This document shows, in pieces, positions 1,379 through 14,289 of a stretch of 20,371 nt of DNA. Both the position numbers and the translations under genes were made by a program. How positions within the stretch are numbered: the first letter of the stretch is position 1; every line of letters begins with the position of its first letter. The notes beneath the pieces were generated by a model that was not told the origin of the DNA, searched no databases, and saw nothing but the letters and a program-made list of their open reading frames with translations. The DNA is from Candidatus Jordarchaeales archaeon (GTDB taxonomy: Archaea; Asgardarchaeota; Jordiarchaeia; Jordiarchaeales; Freyrarchaeaceae), in contig JAWCFL010000003.1 of assembly GCA_038858525.1 (NCBI GenBank), positions 8,364 through 28,734 on the forward strand, in the 5' to 3' direction.

Positions 1379-1677
1379 TTTTCCTCCTCCGTTGTGTGGA
1401 TTTTTCGGGGGAGGAGCTATTAAGTGTTTCTCTGTGTGTGTTGTGGTTTTCCGGGGTTGGTTTGTGGCTTTGTTTTGGCTGTGTGGTTTTTGCGATTTGT
1501 GCGGTTGGTTAGGTTCCCGTGAGGATTCATTTCAAGACTTGTTGGGTTTGATTGAAAGGAGTTTGTGGATTTCTTGAGTGTTGGGCAAGGAGTGTTTGTT
1601 TGAAACGTGAAAAGGTAAAAGCTAAATATTCAAAGTATGTAATTTTATGTGGAAAAGGTTTTGGGACTGTGATACGG

Positions 1678-2547
1678 ATGAGCGTCGTGATTTATGACGT
1701 TACGGCTGAGGGAGACCTTGCGGAGCTGCCTAGCCTCAGCAGGGATGCGCTTAGCAGTGACAGAGTGGTGATCGTTGTCGCTGAGAGGCAGAGGAAGATC
1801 TACCTTTGGAAGGGTAAGAGGTCCTCGGTGAAGAAGAAGTTTGTCGGTGCGAGGAAGGCGTCTGACTTGAGGGCTGAGTGGGGGCTCACGTTTAAGGTGG
1901 TCGCCATGGATGAAGGAGAGGAGGACGGCGACTTCCTCAACTTGCTCGGCGTCAGGGTTGAGGCGGCCTCTAGGACGGCGCCCCGAGAGGTGGCCGTGAA
2001 GCCTCCTCAGGAGGCGGCTGTTGCCGATGGGCCGGCGGCCGTTGCTGTGCGTGAGGAGAAGGTTGTTGTCGAGGAGAGGGCGGCGGCTCCTCCTGTCCGC
2101 GCCGTGAGCCGCACTGCGCCGTCCACTGCTACTGTTGCTCCATCTGTTCAGGCGCCTCGTGGTGCTTCTGCGTCTAGGCCTGCGGGCGGCGCCTCTTTAG
2201 AGGTTAACGAGGAGGCGGTGCTCTCGAAGCTGAGCGAGATAGAGGTCCCGTTGGGGTATGCTAGGGAAATAGTGGTTGTCGGGCCGTGTATTTACGCGGT
2301 GAAGGAGACGAGGACTAGCATTTTTGGGAAGGAGAGTGTTGAGCGCAGGCTGGAGAGGGTTAACCCTCCTGAGGGTGTCTTCGTCGTGGAGAACTTTTTG
2401 CCGAGAGTGATATCCGAAGGGGGAAGAATAGTGGCTATAGAGTTTCTCAGGGAGAAGAGCGACGAGGCTGGAGTGGAGCCTTTGAAGAGCGAGATGGTCA
2501 AGCACCTCGAGGATATAATCTCAGTGTTTAAGGGTGGAAAGGAGTAG
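1678..2547 (+). CDS. Gelsolin-domain protein (single gelsolin-like domain, low-complexity linker, C-terminal domain; Asgard 1DGelX-like)
   Basis: Likely start ATG 1678 (track starts 1552 in GT-rich intergenic DNA). N-terminal ~90 aa LSSDRVVIVV...KIYLWKGKRSSVKKKFVGARKASDLR...KVVAMDEGEEDGDFLNLLG follows the gelsolin repeat pattern (xxWxG, helix, EGxE..F). Confidence 0.8.
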   Translation: MSVVIYDVTAEGDLAELPSLSRDALSSDRVVIVVAERQRKIYLWKGKRSSVKKKFVGARKASDLRAEWGLTFKVVAMDEGEEDGDFLNLLGVRVEAASRTAPREVAVKPPQEAAVADGPAAVAVREEKVVVEERAAAPPVRAVSRTAPSTATVAPSVQAPRGASASRPAGGASLEVNEEAVLSKLSEIEVPLGYAREIVVVGPCIYAVKETRTSIFGKESVERRLERVNPPEGVFVVENFLPRVISEGGRIVAIEFLREKSDEAGVEPLKSEMVKHLEDIISVFKGGKE

Positions 2548-3493: not shown

Positions 3494-6400
3494 TCACCTT
3501 TTCTTTTTCATGCGCCGGACAGCTATTGCCGTGGCTCCAGCGGCGGACACTGCTACAAGCGCCACTACGACTGAGCCTCCCCGGCTTGACGACGCTGTTA
3601 CTAGTAGGAGTAGGAGGAGTAGGAGGTTGGCTTGGGTTTCATAGATGCTCGTTGACACGTATGAAATGTATGATGGGTCGTTCTGGACGTCTTGTCCGTC
3701 CCATTCGGGGAAGCACGTCGCCATGAAGTATGTTTCTCCCGTTATTGTTATGTTGGCTACGCTGTCCCCTGCTTCTCCAATGTACATTCCCCTGAACGCT
3801 GAGAGCGGTGTTGTTGAGGAGAGAGCTGTGAAGGTTCCGCTTCCGTTGAGCGTGTAATTTGAGCCACCCATGTGGAAGTCGGCTATGGGGGAGGAGCCAA
3901 CCTTGAAGCTGAAGCGGTTAGACATCGTGGAGTTGCTGTCAGGGTCCAATGCGGCTCCGCTTTCACTAGTGAAGACCGCCGTGTAGTTCCCTTGGATGAA
4001 CTTGCCGTAGTACGCCATGGCCAAGCTTCTACCCGTGAGGTCGACCGGGCTGCCTTCACCTGTCGCCGCGCTCCAGTCTCCCACTTCCTGGTCTACTTTA
4101 AGGATGCCACTGTAGTTGTCCTCCCCTGCTTCCAAGTGGAAGTGAGCCACCAGCGAGAGGGAGGTTACGTTGGCCGGCGAGGGGGACTTTTCGAAGTCGT
4201 CTGGGTCAACGTAAAGGGGAACATCCCTTATGAATGACCAGACGCTGTGCACTCTGTCGTCGTCCCCCACCTTGAGGGGGAACAGTGTTCCGTTGAGACC
4301 GCTGAGCGAGACGCCGAAGTCCACCGTGGTTCCGCCGGGAACCTTGACGCTGCCGTTAGCCCCGTGCTCACCGTTAAACGGAAGCCTCAGCTCAACGTCT
4401 TCCGCCGAGTTTATGATGAAGACGTGGGTTGCCTCCTCAGGGTCAGCGGCTCCCAGAAGAGGGCTGACGCCCATGTCTAGGACGCCGTCCCCATCCTGGT
4501 CAGTGTAGAGCAGCATGCCTGCGAAGGACGCCTCAATAGTGCTCCAGGAGAGGCCACGGTCAGGCAGGGAGGTGACGTAAACCTCTTGGACGTTGAATAC
4601 CAGCCAGGTCCACTCGTAAGTGTTAGTGGTGATCCACCAGTAGTCGGGGTTGTTTATCAGGTCGTCTATTGATGCATTGATGGTCATAGGGCCAAGGCCA
4701 GCGTAGCCCGGATTCTCCATGCCATTACTCCAAATAGTGCCGTTTATCATTTGCATATCGTTGCTACTGATGGGGGAGCCGTTAACGTAGGTCCAAGTGT
4801 AAGTCCTGTTCCACAGCATGGTTTGCTCGAAGTGCACGTATCCAACATGGGAAATGAGGAGCAAGCCTGGAGGAGACCCTATAGCTGTCACCAGCAACTC
4901 GTAGGAGACATTGGTGGTAATAGTCGCGTTAGCCCGCATCCGGACATAGTAGTTATCTGTGCCGGGGTTATTGTCCAGGTCCAGTGACCCGTCCTCGCCC
5001 ACGGAGTAGTCGAGCCAGCTGAAGGCGGAGTTAAAAGCGATGAGGCTTGAAAGCTCAAAGTGCTTCGATAAGTCAACGCCCCACACCGGGCTTCCATTCG
5101 AGCTGTTGAGGTATATGGGGAGGACGGCGTAGGAGCCGAAGAATGTCGAGTTTGTCGTGTTAAACTTCAGCGAGAATTTTAAGTGTAGAGCCTCGTCAAG
5201 CGTTCTGTTCGCCTCTAAGAGCTCAACGGGTAACTCAGACAGAGGGATAAGAAGGGGTAGTTTTACGGCTATGGCGGCTGAGATGTTTAGGGGGATGTTG
5301 TACATTAGTAGGATTGCGTATTCGGGGAGTTGTCCTCTTAGTAGTTTTAGGGAGAAGGGTAGGAGTGCTATGCAGACATTGTCTACTTGGTTTACGTTTT
5401 GGCCGTGGATGTCTACTAGGATGTTGAAGGGCTCGTTTGTTCTAACCGGGACTTCGATGAGCTGTTTCCCCGCCGTCTGCTGGCTTGTCACGTTTATGTA
5501 AATGTAGGGGTCGTCAACTATTATTTTTGGGTCCAGTGGCTTGTTTATCCATCCGAGCACGTTGCTGTAGTTGTCTAGGACGTTGATCACAGTGTACTTG
5601 TGCTCCCCGTCTGATATGCTGAGGGAGCCGACGAACGTCACGTTGTCGTTTGACGAGTAGCACTCATTAATGTTCAGGGTGAAGTTGGGCGAGCCAGTGC
5701 GCGTAATAACGTACTCGTACTCCGAGACCCTGTAGCCTTCCCCGACGGTGAATGCTCCCTGGTTGAATTTGAGCACTATCCACGTCTTGTCGCCCTTGTC
5801 TATGGCGAATATGGCGTAGTTTATGGGTGAAGAGGCATTTATGGTTATCTTGAACTTCTGCCCGTTCTTGACGTACTTTATAGGTTGCCCGTTTTCGTCT
5901 AGGAAGTGCACTGTGAAGCCGCTTGCCTTCTCGAGGGTTATCAGCCTGAAGGACTTGAACATGCTCTGTGGAAGCCAGTTGAGGGAGCCGGGCTTAACCT
6001 CGTTGCCCTTACTGTCGAGCGTCTTGACTGCGCAGTAGTAGTATCCTTGGAGGGCGGCGTCGGTGAAATAGCCTGTTACGTTAACCACGTATTCATTATC
6101 GCTGTCACTTCTACTGGTGCCGGTGAACGAGAAGGGGTCGGCAACCGTGGTGCCGTCGAACTTAACCATTATGGACTCCTTCTCCCACCTGCTTGAATTG
6201 TAGTTGTATCCTGCCTGGACGTAAACCTTGGCGCCCCCGATGCTGCCGAAGATCTCCACTCCGATATAACCTGCGGCCAGACCTAAGCCCTCAAAGAACT
6301 GCTTCGGCACCCTGACCGAGAAAGTGTAGTTGGCGTTCCTGCTGAGCGTCGACTCGAATCCAAGCGGCCCTGTCTCCACTTCTCCCCCGGAGGAATTGTA

Positions 6401-6631
6401 AATTATGAGCGTCGGCGTTGGGCCAAACTCCCAAGCGTTCACCTCCCAGCTGGCATTGATTGTTGTAGTTCCATTCAGCGTTGACCATGTAACGTTCATT
6501 TCAGGCAGGCTCTGGGCAGCGTATACTGGAGCTTGAATATGCTGGCTGGCCGCCGCAACGCCGACTCCAGTTAGGCCAGCGCCAATCAGGAGCACGGCTA
6601 GAAGCGCCGCCAGCATCACCCTTCCACTCAA
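3494..6631 (-). CDS. Large secreted, C-terminally membrane-anchored glycoprotein (S-layer/surface protein-like), function unknown
   Basis: Likely start TTG 6631, 7 nt after GGAGG (track start 6661). Signal peptide RVMLAALLAVLLIGAGLTGVGVAAA; about 30 N-x-S/T sequons; DQDGDGVLD Ca-binding-type motif at 4475-4501; C-terminal hydrophobic helix then RRMKKKR. Confidence 0.8.
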   Translation of the reverse strand: MSGRVMLAALLAVLLIGAGLTGVGVAAASQHIQAPVYAAQSLPEMNVTWSTLNGTTTINASWEVNAWEFGPTPTLIIYNSSGGEVETGPLGFESTLSRNANYTFSVRVPKQFFEGLGLAAGYIGVEIFGSIGGAKVYVQAGYNYNSSRWEKESIMVKFDGTTVADPFSFTGTSRSDSDNEYVVNVTGYFTDAALQGYYYCAVKTLDSKGNEVKPGSLNWLPQSMFKSFRLITLEKASGFTVHFLDENGQPIKYVKNGQKFKITINASSPINYAIFAIDKGDKTWIVLKFNQGAFTVGEGYRVSEYEYVITRTGSPNFTLNINECYSSNDNVTFVGSLSISDGEHKYTVINVLDNYSNVLGWINKPLDPKIIVDDPYIYINVTSQQTAGKQLIEVPVRTNEPFNILVDIHGQNVNQVDNVCIALLPFSLKLLRGQLPEYAILLMYNIPLNISAAIAVKLPLLIPLSELPVELLEANRTLDEALHLKFSLKFNTTNSTFFGSYAVLPIYLNSSNGSPVWGVDLSKHFELSSLIAFNSAFSWLDYSVGEDGSLDLDNNPGTDNYYVRMRANATITTNVSYELLVTAIGSPPGLLLISHVGYVHFEQTMLWNRTYTWTYVNGSPISSNDMQMINGTIWSNGMENPGYAGLGPMTINASIDDLINNPDYWWITTNTYEWTWLVFNVQEVYVTSLPDRGLSWSTIEASFAGMLLYTDQDGDGVLDMGVSPLLGAADPEEATHVFIINSAEDVELRLPFNGEHGANGSVKVPGGTTVDFGVSLSGLNGTLFPLKVGDDDRVHSVWSFIRDVPLYVDPDDFEKSPSPANVTSLSLVAHFHLEAGEDNYSGILKVDQEVGDWSAATGEGSPVDLTGRSLAMAYYGKFIQGNYTAVFTSESGAALDPDSNSTMSNRFSFKVGSSPIADFHMGGSNYTLNGSGTFTALSSTTPLSAFRGMYIGEAGDSVANITITGETYFMATCFPEWDGQDVQNDPSYISYVSTSIYETQANLLLLLLLLVTASSSRGGSVVVALVAVSAAGATAIAVRRMKKKR

Positions 6632-6811
6632 AGGAAATCCTCCACTGCATAATTTAATCAAATTATAAATAAAGAGGGAATGAAGATTAAATAATATTCT
6701 AAAGAGGCAATTCAGCTTCGGGGTTTGTTCGATCTTGGCGGTGTTGGGGGGAGGAAAAGTTTTAGTTTGTCTTTCGACTTTTTCTAGGTTGAGGGATGGT
6801 TTCTAGTAGCG

Positions 6812-9876: not shown

Positions 9877-10587
9877 ATGAGCGGGGGGCTGGCTGAGCTT
9901 GTCCTCTCGAAAAAGGCGGTCGTCTTCGACTGTGACGGCACCCTCGTTAAGCAGATTATAGATTACCGGTCAGCGAGAAGGGCTGTTATCGATGTGCTAA
10001 GGCGCCACGGTGTCCCAGGAGAGCTGCTTTCCCCCGACGAAGGCATCCTGACTATGCTAAGGCGAGGCGTGAACTTCCTGTCGGCTAAAGGAGAAAGAGT
10101 TGACCAGATGATTTCCGATGTGGACGAGCTTGTTGAGAGGTTCGAGCTTGAGGCGGCGAGCAAGACAACTCCTATACCCGGCGCCCTGGAGCTGCTCACC
10201 CTACTAAGAAGGCTTGGGTTTAAGCTTGGTTTATTCACCCTCAACAAGCGGTCAGCTATGATGATAGTGGTGAAACGCTTCAACCTGGACCAGCTCATGG
10301 ATGTTATGGCTTCGAGAGATGACGTGCCCGCCCCGAAGCCGGACCCACGCCACCTGGAGAGCGTCTTCTCAAGGCTTTCAGTTGAGGCGGCTGAGGCAGT
10401 AGTCGTCGGGGACCACCCAGTGGATGTCGACTGCGCCGTGAGGGCTGGGGCGGTAGCAATAGGAGTGCTCTCCTCCGGAAGAAGAAGAGAGGAGCTTGAG
10501 GGAGCAGGGGCTAAGGTGGTCGTTAACAGCGTGGCCTCCATACTGGAGGCTTTGGAGAGGGCTGTTAGTGGCTCCTTACGGGCGTAG
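9877..10587 (+). CDS. HAD-superfamily hydrolase (phosphoglycolate phosphatase-like)
   Basis: FDCDGTL motif I, TLN motif II, KPDP motif III, VGDHPVD motif IV. Confidence 0.9.
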   Translation: MSGGLAELVLSKKAVVFDCDGTLVKQIIDYRSARRAVIDVLRRHGVPGELLSPDEGILTMLRRGVNFLSAKGERVDQMISDVDELVERFELEAASKTTPIPGALELLTLLRRLGFKLGLFTLNKRSAMMIVVKRFNLDQLMDVMASRDDVPAPKPDPRHLESVFSRLSVEAAEAVVVGDHPVDVDCAVRAGAVAIGVLSSGRRREELEGAGAKVVVNSVASILEALERAVSGSLRA

Positions 10588-11629
10588 ACCCAACGTAGCG
10601 CCACTTCTTCGCCTCCAAGACCATCGCCAGTACATTTTCCACCCTGCACGCCTTGTGAAGGCTGTTGCTGGAGGAAAGAATATACCCTCCATCTTTCCCC
10701 GCCTTCGCTATAGTTTCGCCAACCACCCGTCCCACCTCACGTGGGGGTGCTGAGGGCAGGAGGACGTCGCAGTCTATGTTTCCGACGAGCACGAGTTTTT
10801 CCCCGTACTCCTCCTTAACGCGACCTATGTCGACTCCGGCGGCTGGCTCCAATGAGTGTATGGCATCTACACCAGCCTCGATGAGAAGAGGGAGAAGCGG
10901 GACGATGTAGCCGTCTGAGTGGTGGATCACAGGGACGCCGAGCTTCTTGAATGCGGAAACCTCCCTCTTAAGGAGGGGGAGCACGAGCTTTCTGAAGGTT
11001 TCAGGTGAGAAGAATGGACCGGATTTGTAGGCGTAGTCGTCGGCCAACACGAGAGCGTCAACCCCTAGTTCCACTTCTAATTTCCCCACTTCAACCCAGT
11101 AGTCGCAGACCTTCCTCATGTGCTCGACAACAAAGGATTGGTCCGCGTGGACGTCCGCAAGAAACCTTTCGTGGGTTCTACCGAGGGCGGCTCTCTCAAG
11201 CGGCCCCCCAACGAAGCCTACGACAGCCAAGTCGCCGCTGAGCTCGATCACCCGCTTAACCCCGGCGTACCTTTCAGGCAGGTTTGGATCAGGCCAGCTC
11301 CACGACTCAAAGTCCTCTCGTGTAGCTATGACGCCGCCCGCATACCATTTTGTTCCGTCCTCCGTTATGATCCTCCTCCGCCCCCATTCATCCACATACC
11401 CCCTCCGTCCCTTCTCGTCCTCGAAATGAAATACGGGGAAAGTCTCTGGCCAAGCCGTTATGGCGTCCAGCCCCAGCCACCTATGACATTCGACGCCCGC
11501 CTCCAAACTGTAGTTCCCGCCCCCCATAATCCTGACTACTACCTCCTCGTCTATGCCCATGTCGTAGAGAGGAATAGTGTCTGGCACCCCGTGCTCCAGC
11601 GCTGTGAGGAAACGCTCCCTAGGCTTCAA
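10565..11629 (-). CDS. Uroporphyrinogen decarboxylase / MtaA-CmuA methyltransferase family protein
   Basis: Likely start TTG 11629 (MKPRERFLTALEHGVPD; track start 11743). Family motifs DEWG, ADDYAYKSGPFFSP, HHSDG, LVGNID, GGYILSSSNS. The 3' end overlaps the HAD gene at 10565-10587. Confidence 0.88.
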   Translation of the reverse strand: MKPRERFLTALEHGVPDTIPLYDMGIDEEVVVRIMGGGNYSLEAGVECHRWLGLDAITAWPETFPVFHFEDEKGRRGYVDEWGRRRIITEDGTKWYAGGVIATREDFESWSWPDPNLPERYAGVKRVIELSGDLAVVGFVGGPLERAALGRTHERFLADVHADQSFVVEHMRKVCDYWVEVGKLEVELGVDALVLADDYAYKSGPFFSPETFRKLVLPLLKREVSAFKKLGVPVIHHSDGYIVPLLPLLIEAGVDAIHSLEPAAGVDIGRVKEEYGEKLVLVGNIDCDVLLPSAPPREVGRVVGETIAKAGKDGGYILSSSNSLHKACRVENVLAMVLEAKKWRYVGSTPVRSH

Positions 11630-11699
11630 GCCACCCACCAAGAACTCTTTAAAGGGAAGGAGAATTAAAAAGTTAGGTGGAAAGCAGGGGGCGATTCGG

Positions 11700-12422
11700 G
11701 TGAGGGAGAGCGTTAAGGTCAGAGTGGCGGCAGTCGGAGACATACACTCCCCCCGCTACTTGGATGTTTTACTCGAGGCTGTAAAGGATACGTTAGAAGT
11801 GGACGTAATCATGCTTGCAGGGGACGTGGTTCACAAGGGGAAAGTAGACGAGTACACCCGAGTACTAGACTTGCTGGAGGAACACGTTGACGCCCCGATC
11901 ATCGCTTGCTTTGGAAACGAGGAGTACGAGGACCTTCATGAGGAGATCAAGGAGCTCTGCGGTGGAAGAGTAGTTTTTCTCGAGGAGGAGGCATTCGTCG
12001 TAAATGTTGGAAGCGTAAGCTTGGGGGTTGTGGGGTCTAAGGGCTCGCTTGACAGGCCAACCTGGTGGCAGTCCAAGAATATACCAAACATCAAGGAAAT
12101 ATACGCCGAGAGGGTAGAGCGAGTGAAGGAAGCTGTCTCGAAGCTGAACACGACATACAAGGGGATACTAACACATTACGCACCCACATATTGCAACTTG
12201 GAGGGGGAAAACCCATCGGCTTGGCCCGAGATGGCATCCAAGAAGTATGAGCCAGTACTGGAGAAAGTGGACTTCGCAGTCCATGGGCACGCCCATAGGG
12301 GGAAGACCTTCTGCGAGTTCAAGGGGGTCCCGGTGTTCAACGTGGCACTGCCAGCTACGAGAAAAATAACGGTCTTTGAGGTACCCGCAGGGAAAATTAG
12401 GCTGGACGCGTTCTTCGGATAA
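11700..12422 (+). CDS. Calcineurin-like metallophosphoesterase
   Basis: Likely start GTG 11700 (track start 11577 overlaps the divergent gene). Motifs GDIH, AGD, GNEE, THY, HGHAH. Confidence 0.9.
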   Translation: MRESVKVRVAAVGDIHSPRYLDVLLEAVKDTLEVDVIMLAGDVVHKGKVDEYTRVLDLLEEHVDAPIIACFGNEEYEDLHEEIKELCGGRVVFLEEEAFVVNVGSVSLGVVGSKGSLDRPTWWQSKNIPNIKEIYAERVERVKEAVSKLNTTYKGILTHYAPTYCNLEGENPSAWPEMASKKYEPVLEKVDFAVHGHAHRGKTFCEFKGVPVFNVALPATRKITVFEVPAGKIRLDAFFG

Positions 12423-14072: not shown

Positions 14073-14088
14073 TGGTAAGATTTTTAAA
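14073..14088 (+). promoter_or_regulatory. BRE/TATA promoter of the tRNA gene
   Basis: TTTTTAAA at 14081-14088 preceded by purine-rich GGTAAGA, ending 25 nt before tRNA position 1. Confidence 0.7.
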
Positions 14089-14113: not shown

Positions 14114-14216
14114 AGCGGGGTGGGGTAGTCAGGAGATCCCGCGGGGCTCATAACCCCGAGATCGGTGGTTCAAGGCCGCCCCGCTCTCAAGCGGCGAACA
14201 CATCCACCCCCCGCTA
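14114..14216 (+). tRNA. Initiator tRNA-Met (CAT) with a 28-nt intron at position 58/59 (14174-14201); CCA not encoded
   Basis: Acceptor stem AGCGGGG/CCCCGCT with A1-U72 and discriminator A; anticodon arm CGGGG-CTCATAA-CCCCG with the three G-C pairs of initiators; T stem GGTGG/CCACC. Removing 14174-14201 restores the T loop TTCAAAT. Confidence 0.93.
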
Positions 14217-14289
14217 TACCTTATTAACTTTAAATCCTCTTTAATTTCGTGTTTTTGTGAGCGGTTTCTTGTTCTTGTCCAAAGCTGTG

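Follow-up and report, generated by a model that had tools for sequence, protein, structure and literature searches.

The DNA analysed here, referred to as the window, is a stretch of 20,371 nucleotides from a Candidatus Jordarchaeales archaeon. At positions 14114-14216(+) it carries, as read from the sequence, an archaeal initiator tRNA-Met gene whose T-loop is split by a 28-nt insert. For comparison we used the genome of the window (G000), those of three congeners (G001, G002 and G003) and that of a second genus of the same family (G004). Exon 1 (14114..14173, +) covers tRNA positions 1-58, that is the acceptor 5' strand, the D-arm, the anticodon arm with the anticodon CAT at 14149-14151 (+), the variable loop, the T-stem 5' strand and T-loop positions 54-58, and has the same bases as the intronless ortholog of G003. 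It is followed by the 28-nt intron (14174..14201, +) at tRNA position 58/59, to which a related 24-nt intron at the equal site in G002 corresponds, and by exon 2 (14202..14216, +), which comprises positions 59-73 with A59, U60, the T-stem 3' strand, the acceptor 3' strand and the discriminator A73 and does not encode CCA. Removal of the insert yields a 75-nt tRNA with the exon junction TTCAA/AT, which ARAGORN folds into a perfect cloverleaf with a 7-bp acceptor stem, the T-stem GGUGG/CCACC and the T-loop UUCAAAU. Initiator tRNAs are marked by the terminal pair A1:U72 and three consecutive G:C pairs in the anticodon stem. The excised form has the CAU anticodon in a 7-nt loop, the A1:U72 pair and, at the base of the anticodon stem, three to four G:C pairs, consecutive at 29-31:39-41. 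An earlier note on this DNA had named the gene an initiator tRNA-Met, which these marks bear out, and its coordinates and sequence strings for gene, insert and helices were all correct.

Upstream of the gene lies a putative archaeal promoter (14075..14088, +), in which a BRE-like purine-rich stretch is followed by the TATA box TTTTTAAA (14081-14088), 26-33 nt 5' of the mature tRNA start. In each of the four species of the genus, a TTTTTAA element preceded by purines lies upstream of the ortholog. Downstream, a T-run at 14252..14256 (+) within a T-rich trailer is, by its sequence, a candidate for the transcription stop, a role that we regard as possible.

It had also been proposed that standard annotation may miss or miscall this gene, and both outcomes were encountered. 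Both ARAGORN and Rfam place an erroneous 75-nt gene without an intron at 14114-14188, which in Rfam has 38.9 bits against a gathering score of 29, and the Rfam scan of the whole window at gathering threshold gave no hit. The initiator gene of G002 is called by neither program. Over the entire genome of the window ARAGORN finds five intronless tRNA genes, or ten if introns in the anticodon loop are allowed, and Rfam lists 14 tRNA candidates. The call at 14114-14188 uses intron bases as the 3' strands of the T-stem and the acceptor stem, which the 5' part of the intron resembles. One could take this agreement of two programs, at a score above the gathering score, to mean that the 75-nt tRNA is the true gene and the remainder a leftover duplicate of its 3' end. 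In such a gene two acceptor pairs would be broken and the T-loop would be atypical, and the gene's score is 23.6 bits below that of the spliced form. Moreover, the G002 intron lacks any resemblance to the T-stem and acceptor strands. When the insert was shuffled, ARAGORN still called 45% of the precursors as tRNA; the mimicry of the tRNA 3' end is therefore due to chance, and we discarded the notion of a meaningful copy of that end in the 5' half of the intron. We consider it next to inconceivable that 14114-14188 is the true gene. As ARAGORN and Rfam/Infernal miss or mis-end the gene with the 58/59 intron, the initiator tRNA may look absent or aberrant in such genomes.

Around the intron the precursor can be folded into a structure of the bulge-helix-bulge (BHB) type. 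The exon strand G53 U54 U55 C56 (14168..14171, +) of the central helix H pairs in 4/4 positions with the intron strand GAAC (14196..14199, +), that is GUUC with GAAC. The 5' bulge (14172..14174, +) is made up of A57, A58 and a G, and the 3' bulge (14200..14202, +) of A, C and A59. Between them the intron hairpin h' (14175..14195, +) is formed by GCCGC (14175-14179) and GCGGC (14191-14195) with 5 bp and an 11-nt loop. In canonical BHB geometry the cut is made after the second nucleotide of the bulge. This places the predicted 5' cut after 14173, between A58 and the G, and the predicted 3' cut after 14201, between the C and A59. The cut after 14173 is also the sole one that restores the T-loop of the ortholog. 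We scanned all excision sites that preserve the 5-bp T-stem, and among these registers 58/59 alone combines the full central helix of 4/4 pairs with an inner helix of 5 bp. Motifs of this quality are rarely obtained by chance, as only 0.035% of 200,000 shuffled inserts of the same composition matched it at any of 8 sites (P ~3.5e-4).

The motif shares the 4-bp central helix and the two 3-nt bulges on opposite strands with the strict form. The outer helix in the strict register is a single G52.U60 pair, however, where the strict hBHBh' form has an h of at least 2 bp, and the motif is therefore relaxed. If G52.U60 closes, the 3' bulge has 3 nt; if instead the T-stem pairs 49-52/62-65 form, it has 5 nt. 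The reason lies in the register, which is moved by one nucleotide and draws G53 into the central helix, so that the T-stem is unable to serve as outer helix. The elements of a relaxed BHB of the HBh' type, namely a central helix, a well-formed bulge and the inner helix h', are all present. In addition, excision restores the conserved mature sequence, and the host has the genes for an RNA ligase and for an EndA of the predicted broad-specificity type. The description of the insert as a non-canonical 58/59 intron in a relaxed BHB, which the earlier note had given, is thus upheld by the register scan and the outer helix. Minimum free energy (MFE) folding by itself, of the local region as well as of the full precursor, does not recover the BHB and prefers other pairings. 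The BHB fold has -12.8 kcal/mol versus -15.7 kcal/mol for the local MFE structure, that is 2.9 (~3) kcal/mol above it locally, and lies ~7.5 kcal/mol above the MFE in the full precursor. Failure of MFE folding is usual for motifs with 3-nt bulges, and for this reason we did not count it against the motif.

All four species of the genus have the locus in a syntenic position. In G003 the syntenic ortholog is intronless, equals the spliced gene of the window in 75/75 bases and reaches 62.5 bits on the Rfam tRNA model (RF00005). The ortholog of G004 is likewise intronless, differs in at most a few bases and also scores 62.5 bits on the Rfam tRNA model. G002 carries its 24-nt intron at the identical site, and the stem and the 3' part of this intron resemble those of the window. 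There the partner strand of the central helix is GAAU, which still gives 4/4 pairs by means of one G.U pair, and the inner helix has 6 bp with GCCGU/GCGGC kept and a loop of 7 nt. These comparisons bear on the exact excision site, since the intron could be real but cut at 59/60, leaving the mature T-loop UUCAAGU. Among the matches listed in the survey described below, 92 of ~100 T-loop introns in archaeal initiator genes sit at 59/60, which makes this by a wide margin the most frequent T-loop register; a cut there would leave the full 5-bp T-stem as outer helix, and the intronless relative G014 naturally has the T-loop TTCAAGT. In the precursor of the window, however, 59/60 is merely the next best register, with 1/4 pairs in a central helix whose exon strand would be U54-A57 and with an inner helix of 1 bp, so that the gene falls outside the 59/60 class. 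Besides, the product would not match the genes of the genus, which are otherwise identical, and the G002 intron shows the same preference for 58/59. Excision at 59/60 is therefore very unlikely in our view, and 58/59 is retained as the intron position.

The remaining congener, G001 (L006), has no T-loop intron; its insert, of 19 nt, is located in the variable loop. At one orthologous locus within a single genus, two species thus have a T-loop intron, one has a variable-loop intron and one has none. In the sister family (L008/L009/L018/L022-L024) the same tRNA contains three or four inserts, which are located in the acceptor stem, the D-arm and the anticodon stem and never in the T-loop, in contrast to the single intron of the window gene. 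A single gain on a branch leading to G000 and G002 is not supported by the sequences. The proteins neighbouring the gene are about 80-88% identical between these two species, and over four neighbouring proteins the identity to G000 decreases in the order G001, G003, G002 and G004. A tree of a single gene and one of the four genes resolve the genus poorly; they give weak support to G000 with G003 and contain no clade of G000 with G002. Because of this identity ranking and these trees, more than one event of intron gain or loss within the genus appears likely, though it is not proven. Judging by the four loci, intron positions in the initiator tRNA evidently turn over within the genus, and the locus illustrates on a small scale the fast turnover of introns that has been reported for the class.

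Concerning a second initiator gene, for which the earlier note had proposed a search, motif scans of the 63 contigs of the 2.09-Mb assembly found one initiator-type anticodon arm and one matching acceptor 5' strand. The window gene is thus apparently the sole initiator tRNA gene of the genome, in an assembly that is 92.7% complete. In contigs from four hot-spring DNA runs the intron-bearing sequence recurred unchanged, and an intronless joint of this locus was found in none of these contigs. Among public RNA runs, none was found to contain the locus. The initiator genes of other organisms in the same contigs diverge at 37/38 or in the T-loop. A pattern scan of metagenomes for further orthologous 58/59 introns returned only two unrelated genes of the 59/60 type. 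If the gene were a pseudogene, or the insert were not removed, the working initiator tRNA would have to come from a gene in the 7% of the genome that was not assembled. The incompleteness of the assembly leaves room for this, and tRNA genes are often absent from metagenome bins. Against such decay, the exons show 100% identity with orthologs that look functional, the pairing of the insert that is compatible with a BHB is kept in two species whose neighbouring proteins differ by the amount given above, the promoter element is conserved and the unchanged sequence is present in several metagenomes. Together with the missing second copy in the motif scans of the 92.7% complete assembly, these findings make a non-functional gene highly improbable. 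We favour instead a functional single-copy gene with a removable intron.

The genome of the window encodes a eukaryote-like actin (466 bits) and an ESCRT-II EAP30-domain protein (66 bits, above the cut-off, which none of the control genomes passes). Both fit an Asgard host, as the earlier note had supposed, and these hallmarks together with the published traits of the group fit a hot-spring Asgard archaeon of the Jordarchaeia group. The host possesses two EndA paralogs, located in the regions C3:81835-82089 and C43:5978-6235. Over its full length the alpha paralog of 191 aa can be aligned with the catalytic alpha subunit of Aeropyrum pernix (E=1.6e-48). It possesses the Tyr/His/Lys triad, and the alignment extends across the Crenarchaea-specific loop, where the equivalent of Lys44 of this specificity loop is kept. 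Lys44 of the Crenarchaea-specific loop was reported to confer broad specificity (PMC3241643). In the beta paralog of 198 aa the catalytic His is replaced by Ala, and its nearest relatives are homotetramer-type and M. kandleri-type sequences rather than crenarchaeal beta subunits. An alpha subunit with the triad and a beta subunit without the catalytic His point to an (alpha-beta)2 arrangement, and the host enzyme is predicted to be of the (alpha-beta)2 type and of the broad-specificity kind. This answers the question of the EndA type on which, according to the earlier note, the intron bears. The enzyme resembles the (alpha-beta)2 EndA of A. pernix (Hirata 2011, PMC3241643; PDB 3P1Z) in its alpha subunit, including the specificity loop and the Lys44 equivalent, and in having a second paralog that lacks the catalytic His, but differs from it in that this paralog is not nearest to crenarchaeal beta subunits. 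RtcB ligase is also encoded (601 bits).

A BHB scan of the host genome revealed at least 10 T-loop introns in tRNA-like contexts, of which three are at 58/59, six at 59/60 and one at 56/57. The two further 58/59 introns (C1:76306 and C11:54172), those at 59/60 (C1:96824, C2:115007, C3:78700, C17:13128, C32:185 and C39:14630) and the one at 56/57 (C5:47217) are all BHB-shaped. With at least 10 T-loop introns in this genome, three of them at 58/59, the enzyme must handle the 58/59 register routinely.

Taken together, the window very probably contains the functional single-copy initiator tRNA-Met gene of a Jordarchaeia Asgard archaeon, with a 28-nt intron at 58/59 that is spliced out by EndA and RtcB. 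Splicing itself is inferred from the anatomy of the gene, its conservation and the enzyme content of the host. Transcription would yield a precursor in which T-loop positions 58 and 59 are separated by the 28-nt intron. In it G53-C56 would pair with the GAAC that lies close to the intron's 3' end and form the 4-bp central BHB helix beside the 5-bp intron hairpin. The (alpha-beta)2 endonuclease would then cut after A58 and after the last C of the intron, and RtcB would join the halves. Folding and modification of the T-loop would presumably be possible only after this joining. With the last T-stem pair borrowed and a proper outer helix missing, the 58/59 motif would be a relaxed substrate needing a broad-specificity enzyme. 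An essential tRNA of the organism would hence be made dependent on the splicing endonuclease and the ligase, and the gene offers a well-defined relaxed 58/59 substrate for probing the specificity of Asgard EndA.

To see how common such introns are, we scanned prokaryotes with sequence patterns, using one genome per species. The patterns catch exact exon matches only, and related genomes are non-independent samples, which applies to all counts given here. At least 119 matches were obtained, and of those listed ~100 represent initiator genes of archaea whose T-loop contains an insert. The listed matches come from Nitrososphaeria, Thermoprotei, Bathyarchaeia, Hadarchaeota, DPANN groups, bins labelled Thermococci and Asgard archaea. 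At least 90 sampled archaeal species have T-loop introns in the initiator tRNA, nearly all at 59/60, and the 59/60 introns among the listed matches are mostly of the strict hBHBh' form. Three clear 58/59 introns were among the matches listed, all from Asgard archaea (two Borrarchaeum species and one Promethearchaeota bin), and the ~84 listed initiator T-loop introns from outside this group include none at 58/59. Among 400 Asgard genomes 15 matched. The intron is at 58/59 in six of them, which come from four families, at 59/60 in seven from two families, and at 56/57 in two. Among 401 Thermoproteota genomes there were 8 matches, one of which is at 58/59, and on this ground we rejected the possibility that the register is exclusive to Asgard archaea. 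By these counts 58/59 appears to be the rarer register, commoner in Asgard archaea but not exclusive to them. The initiator tRNAs of four Asgard families and the three tRNA genes of the window's genome suggested to us that the 58/59 T-loop intron, with the last T-stem pair broken and almost no outer helix, might form a class of substrates that recurs and is favoured in Asgard archaea. We put this forward tentatively and think it rather unlikely. If true, the class would indicate a distinct register tolerance of Asgard EndA or a bias in insertion sites and not an accident of sampling.

As a separate observation, tRNA-fMet-like 3' halves that extend from the anticodon loop as far as the acceptor 3' strand were noticed in bacterial metagenome-assembled genomes (MAGs), for instance at L050:7098-7163 (+). 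Similar halves were found in L065, L072, L078, L097, L063, L082, L087, L137, L038, L073 and L100. The MAGs belong mostly to Chloroflexota/Anaerolineae and also to Zixibacteria and Phycisphaerales. These halves end in CGCTA and not in the bacterial CGCAA, have a T-loop insert of 18-36 nt and are directly followed on the 3' side by a hairpin with a T-run. A tRNA 5' half was not found upstream of them, and Rfam gave no match. To our knowledge, Bacteria do not possess EndA.

Several features of the window gene have been described in other archaea. Non-canonical sites of archaeal tRNA introns include 59/60, 56/57 and 53/54 (Yoshihisa 2014, PMC4090602), and ARMAN tRNAs carry introns at 59/60 (Fujishima 2011, PMC3239211). 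The 59/60 T-loop BHB introns of Crenarchaeota, Nanoarchaeota and ARMAN (PMC4090602, PMC3239211) are like the one studied here in that a short T-loop intron is removed, or in the window gene would be removed, by EndA and a ligase, with T-loop nucleotides in the 4-bp central helix and the intron hairpin as inner helix, whereas the window intron is shifted by one nucleotide to 58/59 and relaxed. The tRNA-iMet of Thermofilum pendens is permuted at 59/60, and the authors stressed its essential processing from a single-copy gene (Chan 2011, PMC3218864). Like the window gene, for which a single copy is apparent and the cleavage predicted, this gene and the split tRNA-iMet of Nanoarchaeum equitans (PMC3218864) encode an essential single-copy initiator that needs BHB cleavage to mature. 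The T. pendens junction is also located in the T-loop, one nucleotide downstream of the window intron. These genes, however, are permuted or split into separate transcripts, whereas the gene of the window has an ordinary cis intron.

The closest parallels come from the Asgard archaea themselves. Complete genomes of Atabeyarchaeia and Freyarchaeia have introns in 92%-95% of their tRNA genes (PMC11291895). For Jordiarchaeaceae, a 2026 preprint (bioRxiv 10.64898/2026.10.13.758758) gives ~2.0 intervening sequences per tRNA gene, describes many T-arm introns with BHB motifs and repeated recent gains, and counts two EndA paralogs in 44/60 Asgard genomes. The lineage and the window's host have in common that most tRNA genes contain non-canonical introns, that T-arm introns are frequent and mostly BHB-shaped, that gains and losses are recent and that the two-paralog EndA is typical. 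Neither the locus of the window nor the 58/59 register is mentioned in the accessible text of the preprint. The novelty implied by the earlier note was accordingly overstated: the phenomenon has already been published for the Jordiarchaeia lineage, T-loop introns in initiator tRNAs are common across archaea, and the window gene is a clean instance of them that involves no new mechanism.

Elsewhere in the window, the product of an ORF at 1552-2547 (+) matches the gelsolin repeat weakly (E 9e-4, 19.5 bits, under a cut-off of 21) and may be an Asgard cytoskeleton-related protein. A 1055-aa ORF at 3494-6661 (-) contains no Pfam domain. Close relatives of it are found in G001 and G003 and also in the family's second genus, which has several copies or fragments, some with internal stops; G002 gave a match of just 26 bits, and six sister-family genomes searched gave none at E <= 0.001. 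Finally, the first ~35 codons of a URO-D-like ORF at 10565-11743 (-) align to stop-containing sequence in three relatives. We considered these stops as possible introns and rejected this, as they sit in a spurious N-terminal extension; the annotated start is probably too far upstream.
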